The notes beneath the pieces are model-generated. The model was not told the origin of the DNA. It ran no database searches and saw nothing but the letters and a program-made list of their open reading frames with translations. Below, one piece after another: positions 22,374 to 58,639 of a stretch of 64,000 bases of DNA. The translations under genes were made by a program, and so were the position numbers. The number at the start of each line of letters is the position of its first letter. Within the stretch, counting starts at the first letter, position 1. Where the stretch lies: NCBI RefSeq assembly GCF_003334305.1, contig NZ_QOWS01000006.1, one strand, 5' to 3'. This stretch comes from Escherichia coli. Lineage in GTDB: Bacteria > Pseudomonadota > Gammaproteobacteria > Enterobacterales > Enterobacteriaceae.

Positions 22374-24140
22374 ATGAAAGCAGCGGCGAAAACGCAGAAA
22401 CCAAAACGTCAGGAAGAACATGCCAACTTTATTAGTTGGCGTTTTGCGTTGTTATGCGGCTGTATTCTCCTGGCGCTGGCTTTTCTGCTCGGACGCGTAG
22501 CGTGGTTACAAGTTATCTCCCCGGATATGCTGGTGAAAGAGGGCGACATGCGTTCTCTTCGCGTTCAGCAAGTTTCCACCTCCCGCGGCATGATTACTGA
22601 CCGTTCTGGTCGCCCGTTAGCGGTGAGCGTGCCGGTAAAAGCGATTTGGGCTGACCCGAAAGAAGTGCATGACGCTGGCGGTATCAGCGTCGGTGACCGC
22701 TGGAAGGCGCTGGCTAACGCGCTCAATATTCCGCTGGATCAGCTTTCTGCCCGCATTAACGCCAACCCGAAAGGGCGCTTTATTTATCTGGCGCGTCAGG
22801 TAAACCCTGACATGGCGGACTACATCAAAAAATTGAAACTGCCGGGGATTCATCTGCGTGAAGAATCTCGCCGTTATTATCCATCCGGCGAAGTGACTGC
22901 TCACCTCATCGGCTTTACTAACGTCGATAGTCAGGGGATTGAGGGCGTTGAGAAGAGTTTCGATAAATGGCTTACCGGGCAGCCGGGTGAGCGCATTGTG
23001 CGTAAAGACCGCTATGGTCGCGTAATTGAAGATATTTCTTCTACTGACAGCCAGGCGGCGCACAACCTGGCGTTGAGTATTGATGAACGCTTGCAGGCGC
23101 TGGTTTATCGCGAACTGAACAACGCGGTGGCCTTTAACAAGGCTGAATCCGGTAGCGCCGTGCTGGTGGATGTCAACACCGGTGAAGTGCTGGCGATGGC
23201 TAACAGCCCGTCATACAACCCTAACAATCTGAGCGGCACGCCGAAAGAGGCGATGCGTAACCGTACCATCACCGACGTGTTTGAACCGGGCTCAACGGTT
23301 AAACCGATGGTGGTAATGACCGCGTTGCAACGTGGCGTGGTGCGGGAAAACTCGGTACTCAATACCATTCCTTATCGAATTAACGGCCACGAAATCAAAG
23401 ACGTGGCACGCTACAGCGAATTAACCCTGACCGGGGTATTACAGAAGTCGAGTAACGTCGGTGTTTCCAAGCTGGCGTTAGCGATGCCGTCCTCAGCGTT
23501 AGTAGATACTTACTCACGTTTTGGACTGGGAAAAGCGACCAATTTGGGGTTGGTCGGAGAACGCAGTGGCTTATATCCTCAAAAACAACGGTGGTCTGAC
23601 ATAGAGAGGGCCACCTTCTCTTTCGGCTACGGGCTAATGGTAACACCGTTACAGTTAGCGCGAGTCTACGCAACTATCGGCAGCTACGGCATTTATCGCC
23701 CACTGTCGATTACCAAAGTTGACCCCCCGGTTCCCGGTGAACGTGTCTTCCCGGAATCCATTGTTCGCACCGTGGTGCATATGATGGAAAGCGTGGCGCT
23801 ACCAGGCGGCGGCGGCGTGAAAGCGGCGATTAAAGGCTATCGTATCGCCATTAAAACCGGTACCGCGAAAAAGGTCGGGCCGGACGGTCGCTACATCAAT
23901 AAATATATTGCTTATACCGCAGGCGTTGCGCCTGCGAGTCAGCCGCGCTTCGCGCTGGTTGTTGTTATCAACGATCCGCAGGCGGGTAAATACTACGGCG
24001 GCGCCGTTTCCGCGCCGGTCTTTGGTGCCATCATGGGCGGCGTATTGCGTACCATGAACATCGAGCCGGATGCGCTGACAACGGGCGATAAAAATGAATT
24101 TGTGATTAATCAAGGCGAGGGGACAGGTGGCAGATCGTAA
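22374..24140 (+). CDS. ftsI: Peptidoglycan D,D-transpeptidase FtsI (PBP3)
   Basis: 588 aa with the STVK active-site motif (…[12 protein letters not shown]…), SSN and KTG motifs. Confidence 0.97.
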
Positions 24141-42004: not shown

Positions 42005-42480
<476 letters not shown>

Positions 42481-51022: not shown

Positions 51023-52396
51023 TTAATGCGCTTTTACGGCTTTGGCGGTTTTCTCTTTAAACAGATAGCCGATACCTAACACGATCAGCCATACCGGGAT
51101 CAGGTATACCGAAATCGCCATTCCTGGGGTCATCAGCATAATCACCAGTACCGCCGCCATAAACAGCAGGCAGATCCAGTTACCCAGCGGATAAAGCAGA
51201 GCAGGGAAGCGAGTTACCACGCCTTGTTCCTGCTTGGCGCGACGGAATTTCATATGCGCCAGGCTAATCATCGCCCAGTTGATTACCAGTGCAGATACCA
51301 CCAGCGCCATTAACAGTCCGAAAGCGGACTCTGGGGCAAGGTAGTTAATCAGTACGCACAACGCCGTTACCAGTGCAGACACCAGAATGGTATTTACTGG
51401 TACACCACGTTTATCGACAGACGCCAGCGCTTTTGGCGCATTACCCTGTTGTGCCAGACCAAACAGCATACGGCTGTTGCAATATACGCAGCTGTTGTAC
51501 ACGGAGAGCGCCGCAGTCAGTACCACGATGTTCAGCGCATTCGCCACAAAGGTATCGCCTAACTCGTGGAAGATCAGCACAAACGGACTGGTATCGGCGG
51601 TAACGCGGGTCCACGGCATCAGTGAGAGCAGAACGGCTAACGAACCAATATAGAAAATCAGGATGCGGTAGATAACCTGGTTAGTTGCTTTCGGTATACT
51701 TTGCTCCGGGTTATCAGCTTCTGCTGCGGTGATCCCCACCAGTTCCAGACCACCGAACGAGAACATGATAATCGCCATCATCATCACCAGCCCGGTGAAG
51801 CCGTGCGGCAGGAAACCACCCTGATCCCACAGGTTGCTAACGGTCGCCTGCGGGCCGCCGTTGCCACTGAATAGCAGCCAGCCGCCGAAGATGATCATCG
51901 CTACCACCGCGATAACTTTGATAATGGCAAACCAGAACTCCATCTCGCCAAACACTTTAACGTTGGTCAGGTTGATGGCGTTAATCACCACAAAGAATAC
52001 GGCGGCAGAAACCCAGGTGGGGATTTCCGGATACCAGAACTGAATGTATTTACCCACGGCAGTCAGCTCAGCCATGGCAACTAAAACGTACAGTACCCAG
52101 TAGTTCCAGCCAGAGGCGAAACCGGCAAAACTGCCCCAGTATTTATAAGCAAAGTGGCTAAAGGAGCCTGCGACAGGTTCTTCGACCACCATTTCACCCA
52201 GCTGACGCATGATCAGAAAGGCGATAAAACCAGCAATGGCGTAACCCAGGATAATCCCTGGCCCTGCGGACTGTATTACGGAGGCGCTACCCAGGAATAA
52301 CCCGGTCCCTATCGCGCCACCCAGCGCGATAAGCTGAATATGGCGGTTTTTAAGGCCGCGCTTTAGCTGCTCGCCGTGCTGTTGACCTTCCATCAT
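51023..52396 (-). CDS. aroP: Aromatic amino acid:H+ symporter AroP (APC family)
   Basis: 457 aa; MMEGQQHGEQLKRGLKNRHIQLIALGGAIGTGLFLGSASVIQSAGPGIILGYAIAGFIAFLIMRQLGEMVV... Confidence 0.96.
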   Translation of the reverse strand: MMEGQQHGEQLKRGLKNRHIQLIALGGAIGTGLFLGSASVIQSAGPGIILGYAIAGFIAFLIMRQLGEMVVEEPVAGSFSHFAYKYWGSFAGFASGWNYWVLYVLVAMAELTAVGKYIQFWYPEIPTWVSAAVFFVVINAINLTNVKVFGEMEFWFAIIKVIAVVAMIIFGGWLLFSGNGGPQATVSNLWDQGGFLPHGFTGLVMMMAIIMFSFGGLELVGITAAEADNPEQSIPKATNQVIYRILIFYIGSLAVLLSLMPWTRVTADTSPFVLIFHELGDTFVANALNIVVLTAALSVYNSCVYCNSRMLFGLAQQGNAPKALASVDKRGVPVNTILVSALVTALCVLINYLAPESAFGLLMALVVSALVINWAMISLAHMKFRRAKQEQGVVTRFPALLYPLGNWICLLFMAAVLVIMLMTPGMAISVYLIPVWLIVLGIGYLFKEKTAKAVKAH

Positions 52397-52466
52397 GAAA
52401 CCTCGTGCGGTGGTTGTTTTTTTGATCTACGCAGTGATGCGTGTGTAAGTTTGCAATTCCGTTTGT

Positions 52467-52484
52467 TGTATTAATTTGTTTACA
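52467..52484. promoter_or_regulatory. Candidate TyrR box upstream of aroP
   Basis: TGTATT-aatttg-TTTACA resembles the TyrR box TGTAAA-N6-TTTACA, ~70 bp upstream of the aroP start. Confidence 0.5.
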
Positions 52485-52888
52485 TCAAAGAAGTTTGAAT
52501 TGTTACAAAAAGACTTCCGTCAGATCAAGAATAATGGTATGAGGCAGCGAATGCACCCGCTTTATGCATGGTTGAAGATGAGTTGCTTAAAAAGAAACCG
52601 TTTGTAAAGCTCAGCCTCAACCCCTCTCAATATGTAGAATGAATTTAAATTCGTTTTAATTGAATTAAAAATCACAAAATTGGTAAGTGAATCGGTTCAA
52701 TTCGGATTTTTATAGTTTAATAATCGTTAAAAAACTCCTTTCCTACGTAAAGTCTACATTTGTGCATAGTTACAACTTTGAAACGTTATATATGTCAAGT
52801 TGTTAAAATGTGCACAGTTTCATGATTTCAATCAAAACCTGTATGGACATAAGGTGAATACTTTGTTACTTTAGCGTCACAGACATGA

Positions 52889-52905
52889 AATTGGTAAGAC
52901 CAATT
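52889..52905. promoter_or_regulatory. PdhR operator (autoregulatory site of the pdhR-aceEF-lpd operon)
   Basis: Palindrome AATTGGTAAGACCAATT, ~30 bp upstream of the pdhR start; matches the established PdhR box. Confidence 0.85.
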
Positions 52906-52936
52906 GACTTCGGCAAGTGGCTTAAGACAGGAACTC

Positions 52937-53701
52937 ATGGCCTACAGCAAAATCCGCCAACCAAAACTCTCCGATGTGATTGAGCAGCAACTGGAGTTTT
53001 TGATCCTCGAAGGCACTCTCCGCCCGGGCGAAAAACTCCCACCGGAACGCGAACTGGCAAAACAGTTTGACGTCTCCCGTCCCTCCTTGCGTGAGGCGAT
53101 TCAACGTCTCGAAGCGAAGGGCTTGTTGCTTCGTCGCCAGGGTGGCGGCACTTTTGTCCAGAGCAGCCTATGGCAAAGCTTCAGCGATCCGCTGGTGGAG
53201 CTGCTCTCCGACCATCCTGAGTCACAGTATGACTTGCTCGAAACACGACACGCCCTGGAAGGTATCGCCGCTTATTACGCCGCGCTGCGTAGTACCGATG
53301 AAGACAAGGAACGCATCCGTGAACTCCACCACGCCATAGAGCTGGCGCAGCAGTCTGGCGATCTGGACGCGGAATCAAACGCCGTACTCCAGTATCAGAT
53401 TGCCGTCACCGAAGCGGCCCACAATGTGGTTCTGCTTCATCTGCTAAGGTGTATGGAGCCGATGTTGGCCCAGAATGTCCGCCAGAACTTCGAATTGCTC
53501 TATTCGCGTCGCGAGATGCTGCCGCTGGTGAGTAGTCACCGCACCCGCATATTTGAAGCGATTATGGCCGGTAAGCCGGAAGAAGCGCGCGAAGCATCGC
53601 ATCGCCATCTGGCCTTTATCGAAGAAATTTTGCTCGACAGAAGTCGTGAAGAGAGCCGCCGTGAGCGTTCTCTGCGTCGTCTGGAGCAACGAAAGAATTA
53701 G
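52937..53701 (+). CDS. pdhR: Pyruvate dehydrogenase complex repressor PdhR (GntR/FadR family)
   Basis: [64 protein letters not shown]..., 254 aa; start internal to ORF-track 52904. Confidence 0.95.
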
Positions 53702-53861
53702 TGATTTTTCTGGTAAAAATTATCCAGAAGATGTTGTAAATCAAGCGCATATAAAAGCGCGGCAACTAAACGTAGAACCTGTCTTATTGAGCTTTCCGGC
53801 GAGAGTTCAATGGGACAGGTTCCAGAAAACTCAACGTTATTAGATAGATAAGGAATAACCC

Positions 53862-56525
53862 ATGTCAGAACGTTTCCCAAATGACGTGGATCCGATCGAA
53901 ACTCGCGACTGGCTCCAGGCGATCGAATCGGTCATCCGTGAAGAAGGTGTTGAGCGTGCTCAGTATCTGATCGACCAACTGCTTGCTGAAGCCCGCAAAG
54001 GCGGTGTAAACGTAGCCGCAGGCACAGGTATCAGCAACTACATCAACACCATCCCCGTTGAAGAACAACCGGAGTATCCGGGTAATCTGGAACTGGAACG
54101 CCGTATTCGTTCAGCTATCCGCTGGAACGCCATCATGACGGTGCTGCGTGCGTCGAAAAAAGACCTCGAACTGGGCGGCCATATGGCGTCCTTCCAGTCT
54201 TCCGCAACCATTTATGATGTGTGCTTTAACCACTTCTTCCGTGCACGCAACGAGCAGGATGGCGGCGACCTGGTTTACTTCCAGGGCCACATCTCCCCGG
54301 GCGTGTACGCTCGTGCTTTCCTGGAAGGTCGTCTGACTCAGGAGCAGCTGGATAACTTCCGTCAGGAAGTTCACGGCAATGGCCTCTCTTCCTATCCGCA
54401 CCCGAAACTGATGCCGGAATTCTGGCAGTTCCCGACCGTATCTATGGGTCTGGGGCCGATTGGTGCTATTTACCAGGCTAAATTCCTGAAATATCTGGAA
54501 CACCGTGGCCTGAAAGATACCTCTAAACAGACCGTTTACGCGTTCCTCGGCGACGGTGAAATGGACGAACCGGAATCCAAAGGTGCGATCACCATCGCTA
54601 CCCGTGAAAAACTGGATAACCTGGTCTTCGTTATCAACTGTAACCTGCAGCGTCTTGACGGCCCGGTCACCGGTAACGGCAAGATCATCAACGAACTGGA
54701 AGGCATCTTCGAAGGTGCTGGCTGGAACGTGATCAAAGTGATGTGGGGTAGCCGTTGGGATGAACTGCTGCGTAAAGATACCAGCGGTAAACTGATCCAG
54801 CTGATGAACGAAACCGTTGACGGCGACTACCAGACCTTCAAATCGAAAGATGGTGCGTACGTTCGTGAACACTTCTTCGGTAAATATCCTGAAACCGCAG
54901 CACTGGTTGCAGACTGGACTGACGAGCAGATCTGGGCACTGAACCGTGGTGGTCACGATCCGAAGAAAATCTACGCTGCATTCAAGAAAGCGCAGGAAAC
55001 CAAAGGCAAAGCGACAGTAATCCTTGCTCATACCATTAAAGGTTACGGCATGGGCGACGCGGCTGAAGGTAAAAACATCGCGCACCAGGTTAAGAAAATG
55101 AACATGGACGGCGTGCGTCACATCCGCGACCGTTTCAATGTGCCGGTGTCTGATGCAGATATCGAAAAACTGCCGTACATCACCTTCCCGGAAGGTTCTG
55201 AAGAGCATACCTATCTGCACGCACAGCGTCAGAAACTGCACGGTTATCTGCCAAGCCGTCAGCCGAACTTCACCGAGAAGCTTGAGCTGCCGAGCCTGCA
55301 AGACTTCGGCGCGCTGCTGGAAGAGCAGAGCAAAGAGATCTCTACCACTATCGCTTTCGTTCGTGCCCTGAACGTAATGCTGAAGAACAAGTCGATCAAA
55401 GATCGTCTGGTACCGATCATCGCCGACGAAGCGCGTACTTTCGGTATGGAAGGTCTGTTCCGTCAGATTGGTATTTACAGCCCGAACGGTCAGCAGTACA
55501 CCCCGCAGGACCGCGAGCAGGTTGCTTACTATAAAGAAGACGAGAAAGGTCAGATTCTGCAGGAAGGGATCAACGAGTTGGGCGCAGGTTGTTCCTGGCT
55601 GGCAGCGGCGACCTCTTACAGCACCAACAATCTGCCGATGATTCCGTTCTACATCTATTACTCGATGTTCGGCTTCCAGCGTATCGGCGATCTGTGCTGG
55701 GCGGCTGGCGACCAGCAAGCGCGTGGCTTCCTGATCGGCGGTACTTCCGGTCGTACCACCCTGAACGGTGAAGGTCTGCAGCACGAAGATGGTCACAGCC
55801 ACATTCAGTCGCTGACTATCCCGAACTGTATCTCTTACGACCCGGCTTACGCTTACGAAGTTGCTGTCATTATGCATGACGGTCTGGAGCGTATGTACGG
55901 TGAAAAACAAGAGAACGTTTACTACTACATCACTACGCTGAACGAAAACTACCACATGCCGGCAATGCCGGAAGGTGCTGAGGAAGGTATCCGTAAAGGT
56001 ATCTACAAACTCGAAACCATTGAAGGTAGCAAAGGTAAAGTTCAGCTGCTGGGCTCCGGTTCCATCCTGCGTCACGTCCGTGAAGCGGCAGAGATCCTGG
56101 CGAAAGATTACGGCGTAGGTTCTGACGTTTATAGCGTGACCTCCTTCACCGAACTGGCGCGAGATGGTCAGGATTGTGAACGCTGGAACATGCTGCACCC
56201 GCTGGAAACTCCGCGCGTTCCGTATATCGCTCAGGTGATGAACGACGCTCCGGCAGTGGCATCTACCGACTATATGAAACTGTTCGCTGAGCAGGTCCGT
56301 ACTTACGTACCGGCTGACGACTACCGCGTACTGGGTACTGATGGCTTCGGTCGTTCCGACAGCCGTGAGAACCTGCGTCACCACTTCGAAGTTGATGCTT
56401 CCTACGTGGTTGTAGCGGCGCTGGGCGAACTGGCTAAACGTGGCGAAATCGATAAGAAAGTGGTTGCTGACGCAATCGCCAAATTCAACATCGATGCAGA
56501 TAAAGTTAACCCGCGTCTGGCGTAA
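53862..56525 (+). CDS. aceE: Pyruvate dehydrogenase E1 component AceE
   Basis: 887 aa; [48 protein letters not shown]... Confidence 0.98.
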
Positions 56526-56539
56526 GAGGTAAAAGAATA

Positions 56540-58432
56540 ATGGCTATCGAAATCAAAGTACCGGACATCGGGGCTGATGAAGTTGAAATCACCGAGATCC
56601 TGGTCAAAGTGGGCGACAAAGTTGAAGCCGAACAGTCGCTGATCACCGTAGAAGGCGACAAAGCCTCTATGGAAGTTCCGTCTCCGCAGGCGGGTATCGT
56701 TAAAGAGATCAAAGTCTCTGTTGGCGATAAAACCCAGACCGGCGCACTGATTATGATTTTCGATTCCGCCGACGGTGCAGCAGACGCTGCACCTGCTCAG
56801 GCAGAAGAGAAGAAAGAAACAGCTCCGGCAGCAGCACCAGCGGCTGCAGCGGCAAAAGACGTTAACGTTCCGGATATCGGCAGCGACGAAGTTGAAGTGA
56901 CCGAAATCCTGGTGAAAGTTGGCGATAAAGTTGAAGCTGAACAGTCGCTGATCACCGTAGAAGGCGATAAAGCTTCTATGGAAGTTCCGGCTCCGTTTGC
57001 TGGCACCGTGAAAGAGATCAAAGTGAACGTGGGTGACAAAGTGTCTACCGGCTCGCTGATTATGGTCTTCGAAGTCGCGGGTGAAGCAGGCGCGGCAGCT
57101 CCGGCGGCTAAACAGGAAGCGGCTCCGGCAGCGGCCCCTGCACCAGCGGCTGGCGTGAAAGAAGTTAACGTTCCGGATATCGGCGGTGACGAAGTTGAAG
57201 TGACCGAAGTGATGGTGAAAGTGGGCGACAAAGTTGCCGCTGAACAGTCACTGATCACCGTAGAAGGCGACAAAGCTTCTATGGAAGTTCCGGCGCCGTT
57301 TGCAGGCGTCGTGAAGGAACTGAAAGTCAACGTTGGCGATAAAGTGAAAACTGGCTCGCTGATTATGATCTTCGAAGTTGAAGGCGCAGCGCCTGCGGCA
57401 GCTCCTGCGAAACAGGAAGCGGCAGCGCCGGCTCCGGCAGCAAAAGCTGAAGCTCCGGCAGCAGCACCGGCTGCGAAAGCGGAAGGCAAATCTGAATTTG
57501 CAGAAAACGACGCTTACGTTCACGCGACTCCGCTGATCCGCCGTCTGGCACGCGAGTTTGGCGTTAACCTGGCGAAAGTGAAGGGCACTGGCCGTAAAGG
57601 TCGTATCCTGCGCGAAGACGTTCAGGCTTACGTGAAAGAAGCTATCAAACGTGCAGAAGCAGCTCCGGCGGCGACTGGCGGCGGTATCCCAGGCATGCTG
57701 CCGTGGCCGAAGGTGGACTTCAGCAAGTTTGGTGAAATCGAAGAAGTGGAACTGGGCCGTATCCAGAAAATTTCTGGTGCGAACCTGAGCCGTAACTGGG
57801 TGATGATCCCGCATGTTACTCACTTCGACAAAACCGATATCACCGAGCTGGAAGCGTTCCGTAAACAGCAGAACGAAGAAGCGGCGAAACGTAAGCTGGA
57901 TGTGAAGATCACCCCGGTTGTCTTCATCATGAAAGCCGTTGCTGCAGCTCTTGAGCAGATGCCTCGCTTCAACAGTTCGTTGTCGGAAGACGGTCAGCGT
58001 CTGACCCTGAAGAAATACATCAACATCGGTGTGGCGGTGGATACCCCGAACGGTCTGGTTGTTCCGGTATTCAAAGACGTCAACAAGAAAGGCATCATCG
58101 AGCTGTCTCGCGAGCTGATGACTATTTCTAAGAAAGCGCGTGACGGTAAGCTGACTGCGGGCGAAATGCAGGGCGGTTGCTTCACCATCTCCAGCATCGG
58201 CGGCCTGGGTACTACCCACTTCGCGCCGATTGTGAACGCGCCGGAAGTGGCTATCCTCGGCGTTTCCAAGTCCGCGATGGAGCCGGTGTGGAATGGTAAA
58301 GAGTTCGTGCCGCGTCTGATGCTGCCGATTTCTCTCTCCTTCGACCACCGCGTGATCGACGGTGCTGATGGTGCCCGTTTCATTACCATCATTAACAACA
58401 CGCTGTCTGACATTCGCCGTCTGGTGATGTAA
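56540..58432 (+). CDS. aceF: Dihydrolipoamide acetyltransferase E2 AceF (three lipoyl domains)
   Basis: 630 aa; three repeats of ...[37 protein letters not shown]... separated by Ala/Pro-rich linkers, then a catalytic domain with DHRVIDG. Confidence 0.98.
56546..57420 (+). repeat. Three tandem ~300-bp DNA repeats encoding the AceF lipoyl domains
   Basis: Near-identical segments beginning gaagttgaa(a/g)t(c/g)accga at 56579, 56888 and 57191 (periods 309 and 303 bp). Confidence 0.85.
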
Positions 58433-58435
58433 GTA

Positions 58436-58465
58436 AAAGAGCCGGCCCAACGGCCGGCTTTTTTC
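58436..58465 (+). terminator. Intrinsic terminator after aceF
   Basis: gccggcc-caac-ggccggc followed by a T6 run. Confidence 0.8.
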
Positions 58466-58639
58466 TGGTAATCTCATGAATGTATTGAGGTTATTAGCGA
58501 ATAGACAAATCGGTTGCCGTTTGTTGTTTAAAAATTGTTAACAATTTTGTAAAATACCGACGGATAGAACGACCCGGTGGATAATGGGCGTCATAAAAAA
58601 AACGTCAGACCCGCCGGAGATAAATATATAGAGGTCATG

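Follow-up and report, generated by a model that had tools for sequence, protein, structure and literature searches.

The aceF–lpd spacer of the window, by which we mean the whole stretch of 64,000 nucleotides that was analyzed, very probably represents an ERIC-free, ancestral-type allele. In this allele the apex of a small hairpin in the lpd leader is a 31-nt segment, which is replaced in K-12 by an ERIC-bearing block, and the consequence of the exchange for expression is expected to be small or neutral. Our alignments indicate that nothing has been deleted in this strain, and that it is K-12 which instead carries the ERIC-bearing block. The term ancestral-type is used here as a description of the sequence and not of a resolved history.

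The spacer extends from position 58433 to position 58639 and is 207 bp long, as defined by the TAA stop codon of aceF (58430-58432) and the ATG of lpd (58640) in the list of open reading frames. This confirms the length given in the original prediction. In MG1655 (NC_000913.3) aceF ends at position 127587 and lpd starts at position 127912, which results in a spacer of 324 bp. The K-12 value of about 324 bp quoted in the prediction is therefore right, and the reference does not share the spacer of about 207 bp. The difference in length amounts to exactly 117 bp. Direct comparison of the window with the MG1655 aceF–lpd region, by pairwise as well as multiple alignment, shows that the two spacers are base-for-base the same outside a single block. 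This block comprises 31 bp in the window (58580-58610, GATAATGGGCGTCATAAAAAAAACGTCAGAC) and 148 bp in MG1655; the alignment leaves 1 nt of freedom in placing its left edge and 3 nt in placing its right edge. It had been proposed that the strain is devoid of roughly 117 bp of the lpd leader. The size of the gap and its position in the leader stand, but the change has the opposite polarity and is of a different nature, as the window has a 31-bp outgroup-like segment of its own at this site.

Upstream of the spacer, on the plus strand, lies the aceF coding sequence (56540-58432), which according to the open reading frame list and the megablast annotation encodes the 630-aa E2 subunit of pyruvate dehydrogenase. 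Its C-terminus (...DIRRLVM) is the same as in all relatives compared. The stop codon is followed by a plus-strand hairpin, AGCCGGCC-CAAC-GGCCGGCT, and a T-run (58440-58465), which we read from the sequence as the aceF terminator. The scan reports its 8-pair stem on the minus strand only, and the plus-strand reading was made manually from the T-run. The element is identical in both alleles, and the alignment shows that the hairpin is kept across Enterobacteriaceae. When the window spacer and the MG1655 locus were scanned against Rfam at permissive E-values, no family reached its gathering score. Sub-threshold hits, for example OrzO-P on the aceF terminator (31.9 bits, with 60 needed) and CssrA on a portion of the MG1655 ERIC (26 bits, with 93 needed), were rejected as chance matches.

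Promoter scans predict the same lpd promoter in the window and in MG1655, consisting of a -35 hexamer (TTTAAA, 58527-58532), a 17-bp spacer and a -10 hexamer (TAAAAT, 58550-58555) on the plus strand, and both hexamers are identical in the two strains. A passage in PMC2759082 places the K-12 lpd promoter 195 nt from the lpd ATG. If this transcription start is projected onto the window by alignment, it falls on position 58562 (plus strand), 7 nt after the -10 hexamer, and the lpd leader would be 78 nt long here compared to 195 nt in K-12. The replaced block would thus occupy positions +19 to +49 of the leader. The sequence from 58433 to 58579, which includes the upstream operator region reported to bind ArcA (Cunningham et al., 1998), is identical to K-12. 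On the other side of the block the last 29 nt of the leader are identical in both alleles, including the Shine-Dalgarno sequence (AGAGGU, 58630-58635) in front of the ATG (58640-58642, plus strand). The original prediction had also considered that the lpd promoter itself may be shorter. This is not the case, since the -35 and -10 hexamers and everything else from the aceF stop codon to +18 match K-12. The promoter keeps its length, and the transcribed leader alone differs.

The lpd (lpdA) coding sequence itself (58640-60064, plus strand, from the open reading frame list) specifies a protein of 474 aa starting with MSTEIKTQ and is 100% identical in nucleotide sequence to lpd of CFT073. In the short allele there is no stop codon between the ATG of lpd and an in-frame GTG at position 58577 (58577-58639), which results in a mechanical open reading frame call of 495 aa instead of 474 aa. 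This call is an annotation trap, and there is no evidence for an extended protein.

RNA folding places the exchanged block within a hairpin of the leader. Its basal 7-bp stem, which is common to both alleles, is formed by a 5' arm (CCGGUGG, 58574-58580) and a 3' arm (CCGCCGG, 58611-58617), both on the plus strand. In the window it encloses the ERIC-free apical segment on the same strand, which is delimited by the alignments, by outgroup homology and by the fold, and which contains an inner stem of GGCGU (58587-58591) and ACGUC (58602-58606). In the predicted fold of the K-12 leader the same basal stem also closes the ERIC hairpin. The folding energy of the short leader is ordinary (z = -0.7). 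The K-12 leader forms a long hairpin of -81.8 kcal/mol (z = -5.3), and none of 200 shuffled sequences folds as well.

ERIC elements, also termed IRU or RU-1, are reportedly 127-bp imperfect palindromes of Enterobacteriaceae with MITE-like features, and are said to have been described by Sharples and Lloyd in 1990, by Hulton and colleagues in 1991 and by Wilson and Sharp in 2006. The 148-bp block of MG1655 is composed of 21 bp (GTGGTTAGGGTATTACTTCAC), a 125-nt ERIC stretch and a final GA. In a gap-free alignment of the ERIC stretch (MG1655 127756-127880) with positions 2-126 of the ERIC consensus, 100 of 125 positions are identical (80%); the consensus used is the 127-bp E. coli consensus of Wilson & Sharp in the form reproduced in Table 1a of PMC2759123. 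The core of the block matches the joined ERIC1R-rc and ERIC2 primer sequences at 41 of 44 positions. Moreover, at megablast sensitivity the block is found at 23805 places in 4902 genomes, with a median of five per genome, and other ERIC copies are present in the examined loci of other genera. Because of the match to the consensus, the conserved core, the long hairpin and the multiple dispersed copies, we assign the K-12-type block to the ERIC/IRU repeats of 125-127 bp.

The relevant sections of PMC2759123 and PMC3184786 describe TA at both termini and a TA target duplication for ERIC elements. At the K-12 copy, neither TA termini nor a flanking TA duplication is found; its ends read CATACCC...GGGTATG, and the target has lost 31 bp. 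The copy may be old or rearranged, which leaves its assignment to the family by sequence unaffected. The 21 bp to its left (MG1655 127735-127755, L001:736-756) contain TAGGGTAT, the inverted complement of the left end of the ERIC (ATACCCTA). This motif may have been left behind by an ERIC terminus, or it may serve as another partner for pairing. In 'Enterobacter sp. 10-1' (L066) the equivalent pairing is kept by means of a U-G wobble.

The window spacer (58433-58639) lacks any ERIC similarity, its best local score being 20-21 compared to 150 for K-12, and no ERIC2-like site with three or fewer mismatches was detected anywhere in the 64-kb window. Presence or absence of ERIC elements between E. 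coli strains as such is documented (PMC10969869, in a passage citing Wilson & Sharp, 2006). Among the papers covered by full-text searches combining ERIC or IRU with lpd and aceF, nothing relevant on an ERIC between aceF and lpd was returned.

The ancestral state was assessed in an outgroup survey, in which the first 26 nt of lpd were used to scan one genome per species, yielding 75 loci from Enterobacteriaceae and relatives. Most of the approximately 70 genomes of other Enterobacteriaceae species that were measured have ERIC-free spacers of 196-214 bp, examples being Salmonella (201-202 bp), Citrobacter (199-212 bp) and Klebsiella (206-207 bp). At the position of the 31-bp segment, 25 of 31 bases are identical in Citrobacter freundii and in Atlantibacter, and 27 of 31 in Franconibacter as well as in Escherichia sp. 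MOD1-EC7003. Klebsiella, too, has a segment homologous to the 31 bp of the window at this position. The start of the K-12 block, in contrast, matches the segment at only 7 of 31 positions. Deletion of an ERIC cannot recreate 31 bp that resemble those of the outgroups, and thus the window holds the ancestral-type allele. The alignments point to an origin of the K-12 form in which an ERIC-containing block replaced the apex of the small leader hairpin. All 34 distinct ERIC-free leaders retain the basal stem of this hairpin (CCGGUGG/CCGCCGG), and the changes seen in it affect one side only and preserve the pairing. Since all changes are one-sided, the stem is supported by conservation and not by compensatory change.

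The survey also revealed other variation in this region. The hairpin apex measures 48 nt in Siccibacter, 73-74 nt in Tenebrionibacter and LSJC7, and 77 nt in Edwardsiella. In one metagenome-assembled genome (L064) it is occupied by an unrelated insert of about 220 bp, with a spacer of 396 bp. Three Buttiauxella species do not have the leader hairpin, and their spacer is 153 bp long. Finally, Escherichia sp. MOD1-EC7003 (L073) has an ERIC-free apex but carries a REP-like insert of about 150 bp directly after the aceF stop codon, in a spacer of 359 bp.

Within E. coli both alleles are common. Among 5426 complete genomes the short 207-bp allele is present in 1992 (36.7%) and the 324-bp ERIC allele in 3434 (63.3%). 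The short allele is found in CFT073, Sakai and IAI39, which represent phylogroups B2, E and F, respectively, and the ERIC allele in MG1655 and HS of phylogroup A and in IAI1 of phylogroup B1. In a comparison spanning 25 kb, the nearest matches of the window are E. coli A7, NCTC9088 and their relatives; at the local scale the window resembles Sakai and CFT073 more closely than K-12. RefSeq flags aceF of CFT073 (L078:8043-9936) as a frameshifted pseudogene, which is probably a sequencing error in an old assembly, because the gene is essential in central metabolism.

How the two alleles came to be distributed in this way bears on a further reading, which we regard as possible, if somewhat doubtful. 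It holds that this is a recombining two-allele locus, at which short-patch homologous recombination, acting among Escherichia lineages or even across genus boundaries, either re-introduced the short allele or spread the ERIC allele. Apart from the block, window and K-12 are free of SNPs over 57981-58887 (about 900 bp), next to 13 SNPs per 500 bp in adjacent aceF. SNP-poor stretches are, however, common in the region (e.g., 52000-54000). The long form is carried by genomes (H91-H95) that agree with the window at 99.8% of positions across 25 kb, as would be expected if the alleles had been exchanged. The six reference strains, on the other hand, sort cleanly, the ERIC allele in A and B1 and the short one in B2, E and F, which fits simple vertical inheritance within E. 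coli. Outside this species, ERIC blocks that are 98.6-100% identical to that of K-12 occur in E. albertii, E. whittamii and Escherichia sp. E1V33, and those of E. albertii and E1V33 are 100% identical to it despite differing flanks. The presence of the ERIC in these three relatives means that it could be the older state within the genus, with the short allele persisting in E. coli only as a retained polymorphism or after re-import by recombination. Moreover, the ERIC variant of K-12 is found at the same leader junction in Raoultella terrigena (L045:1-60) and in 'Enterobacter sp. 10-1' (L066:3324-3450), which has Klebsiella-like flanks. This Raoultella-like copy has 25 of 27 consensus differences in common with the K-12 copy and matches it at 119 of 127 positions overall. 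Within Klebsiella, the ERIC-free apex is found in K. pneumoniae, K. oxytoca, K. grimontii and K. spallanzanii. This pattern suggests either transfer of the allele between genera or site-specific insertion. For Escherichia itself, polymorphism that has been retained, introgression, or recombination spreading one of the alleles may account for the distribution. In each case, the window carries the ERIC-free, ancestral-type sequence.

What this allele would mean for expression can be outlined as follows. In this strain lpd would rely on the sigma-70 promoter that also serves K-12, with an unchanged upstream region, and it would also be reached by read-through from pdhR-aceEF. The 148-bp block of K-12 replaces the 31-nt apex of a leader hairpin conserved in Enterobacteriaceae, of which the 7-bp basal stem is predicted to be retained. 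In K-12-type mRNA the ERIC duplex may affect how RNases process the lpd mRNA and the aceEF-lpd read-through transcript, or the half-lives of these RNAs. By this analysis the only plausible functional difference between the alleles would be post-transcriptional, at the level of mRNA processing or stability. According to sections of PMC3184786 and PMC10969869, transcribed ERICs in Yersinia expose an RNase E site within a terminal inverted repeat and in this way alter the level of the mRNA. Such RNase E-dependent decay is the sole mechanism documented for an effect of a transcribed ERIC on expression.

This route is the basis of a stronger claim, namely that presence or absence of the ERIC is a regulatory switch. 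The duplex would alter the stability or processing of lpd mRNA through RNase E or RNase III, so that phylogroups would differ in the amount of Lpd supplied to the 2-oxoglutarate dehydrogenase and glycine-cleavage complexes. We consider this unlikely. Besides the Yersinia precedent, the very stable duplex in the K-12 leader and the 98.6-100% conservation of the block across Escherichia species are in its favor. Predicted accessibility of the translation start, however, is the same in both alleles. In partition-function folding of the short and the ERIC allele, the unpaired probability is 0.47 and 0.47 for the Shine-Dalgarno sequence, and 0.54 and 0.54 for the region from -20 to +15. A scan of the MG1655 locus further showed that the ERIC contributes neither promoter-like nor terminator-like sites. 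Both alleles are also common in successful lineages, and the Buttiauxella species do without the hairpin altogether. We think that the effect of the allele on lpd expression would be small or neutral.

A more speculative extension, to which we give little credence, views the apex of the leader hairpin as a preferred landing or exchange site for palindromic repeats, where the ERIC and the 31-nt apex may be kept as alternative alleles in different species and genera, both in Escherichia and in Raoultella-like bacteria. Recombination would maintain the two alleles, possibly together with balancing selection acting on the dosage of Lpd. If this were true, the locus would be a natural allele pair for testing a transcribed ERIC.

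A 117-bp deletion in this strain or its lineage, which would have removed part of the lpd leader, is very improbable. The net difference of exactly 117 bp is what such an event would leave behind, and the ERIC alleles of E. albertii and the cryptic Escherichia clades mean that the repeat may be old in the genus. Yet the 31 bp of the window, which K-12 is missing, are identical to those of other genera at 25-27 of 31 positions and match the start of the K-12 block at only seven. Deletion was rejected, since loss of the ERIC cannot regenerate a segment homologous to the outgroups. Finally, collapse of the palindromic repeat during sequencing or assembly can be dismissed almost outright: long palindromes can drop out of assemblies, but the short form contains unique sequence absent from the long one, and it is shared, identical and contiguous, by 1992 independent complete genomes, including Sakai, CFT073 and IAI39.

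For practical purposes, K-12 lpd leader coordinates (a 195-nt 5' UTR) do not transfer to strains of phylogroups B2, E and F such as CFT073, O157:H7 Sakai and IAI39, in which the projected leader would be 78 nt. The allele should be considered in primer design, reporter fusions, annotation of transcription start sites and the interpretation of ERIC-PCR bands at this locus. The natural pair of alleles would also be well suited to studies of whether the fate of mRNA in E. coli depends on a transcribed ERIC. There is otherwise no sign of an unusual biological feature, and the difference matters little.

Other differences are found nearby. The mutT-yacG spacer (window 42380-42480) has one REP/BIME-like unit and that of MG1655 two in tandem, a difference of 116 bp as determined by BLAST and alignment. 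The length of the yacH product (60135-61892, minus strand) varies: it is 585 aa both in the window and in IAI1, 593 aa in CFT073, and 617 aa in MG1655, Sakai and HS. A cluster of SNPs relative to K-12 is located at 60067-60486, with 20 in 500 bp.

Three known systems provide a frame for these results. Compared to the ERIC/IRU family, the K-12 block has the expected ungapped 125 nt, core, long hairpin and multiple copies, and it is intergenic and predicted to be transcribed. It differs in being a divergent copy (80%), in its 21 extra bases on the left, in having neither TA ends nor a TA duplication and in replacing 31 bp, and the window itself has no ERIC. The Yersinia ERICs that modulate mRNA decay via RNase E (De Gregorio et al., 2005) resemble the K-12-type ERIC in that the element is transcribed and adjoins a coding region. 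They are, however, situated at 3' ends or between cistrons, whereas the ERIC of K-12 lpd lies in the 5' leader, and the window is without the element. Finally, the window shares with the sigma-70-dependent, ArcA-repressed lpd promoter of K-12 the entire sequence from the aceF stop codon to +18, including the hexamers and the aceF terminator, and differs from it in a leader that would be 78 nt instead of 195 nt. The ERIC-free spacer is thus an ordinary feature, the unoccupied allele of an already-known kind of strain polymorphism.
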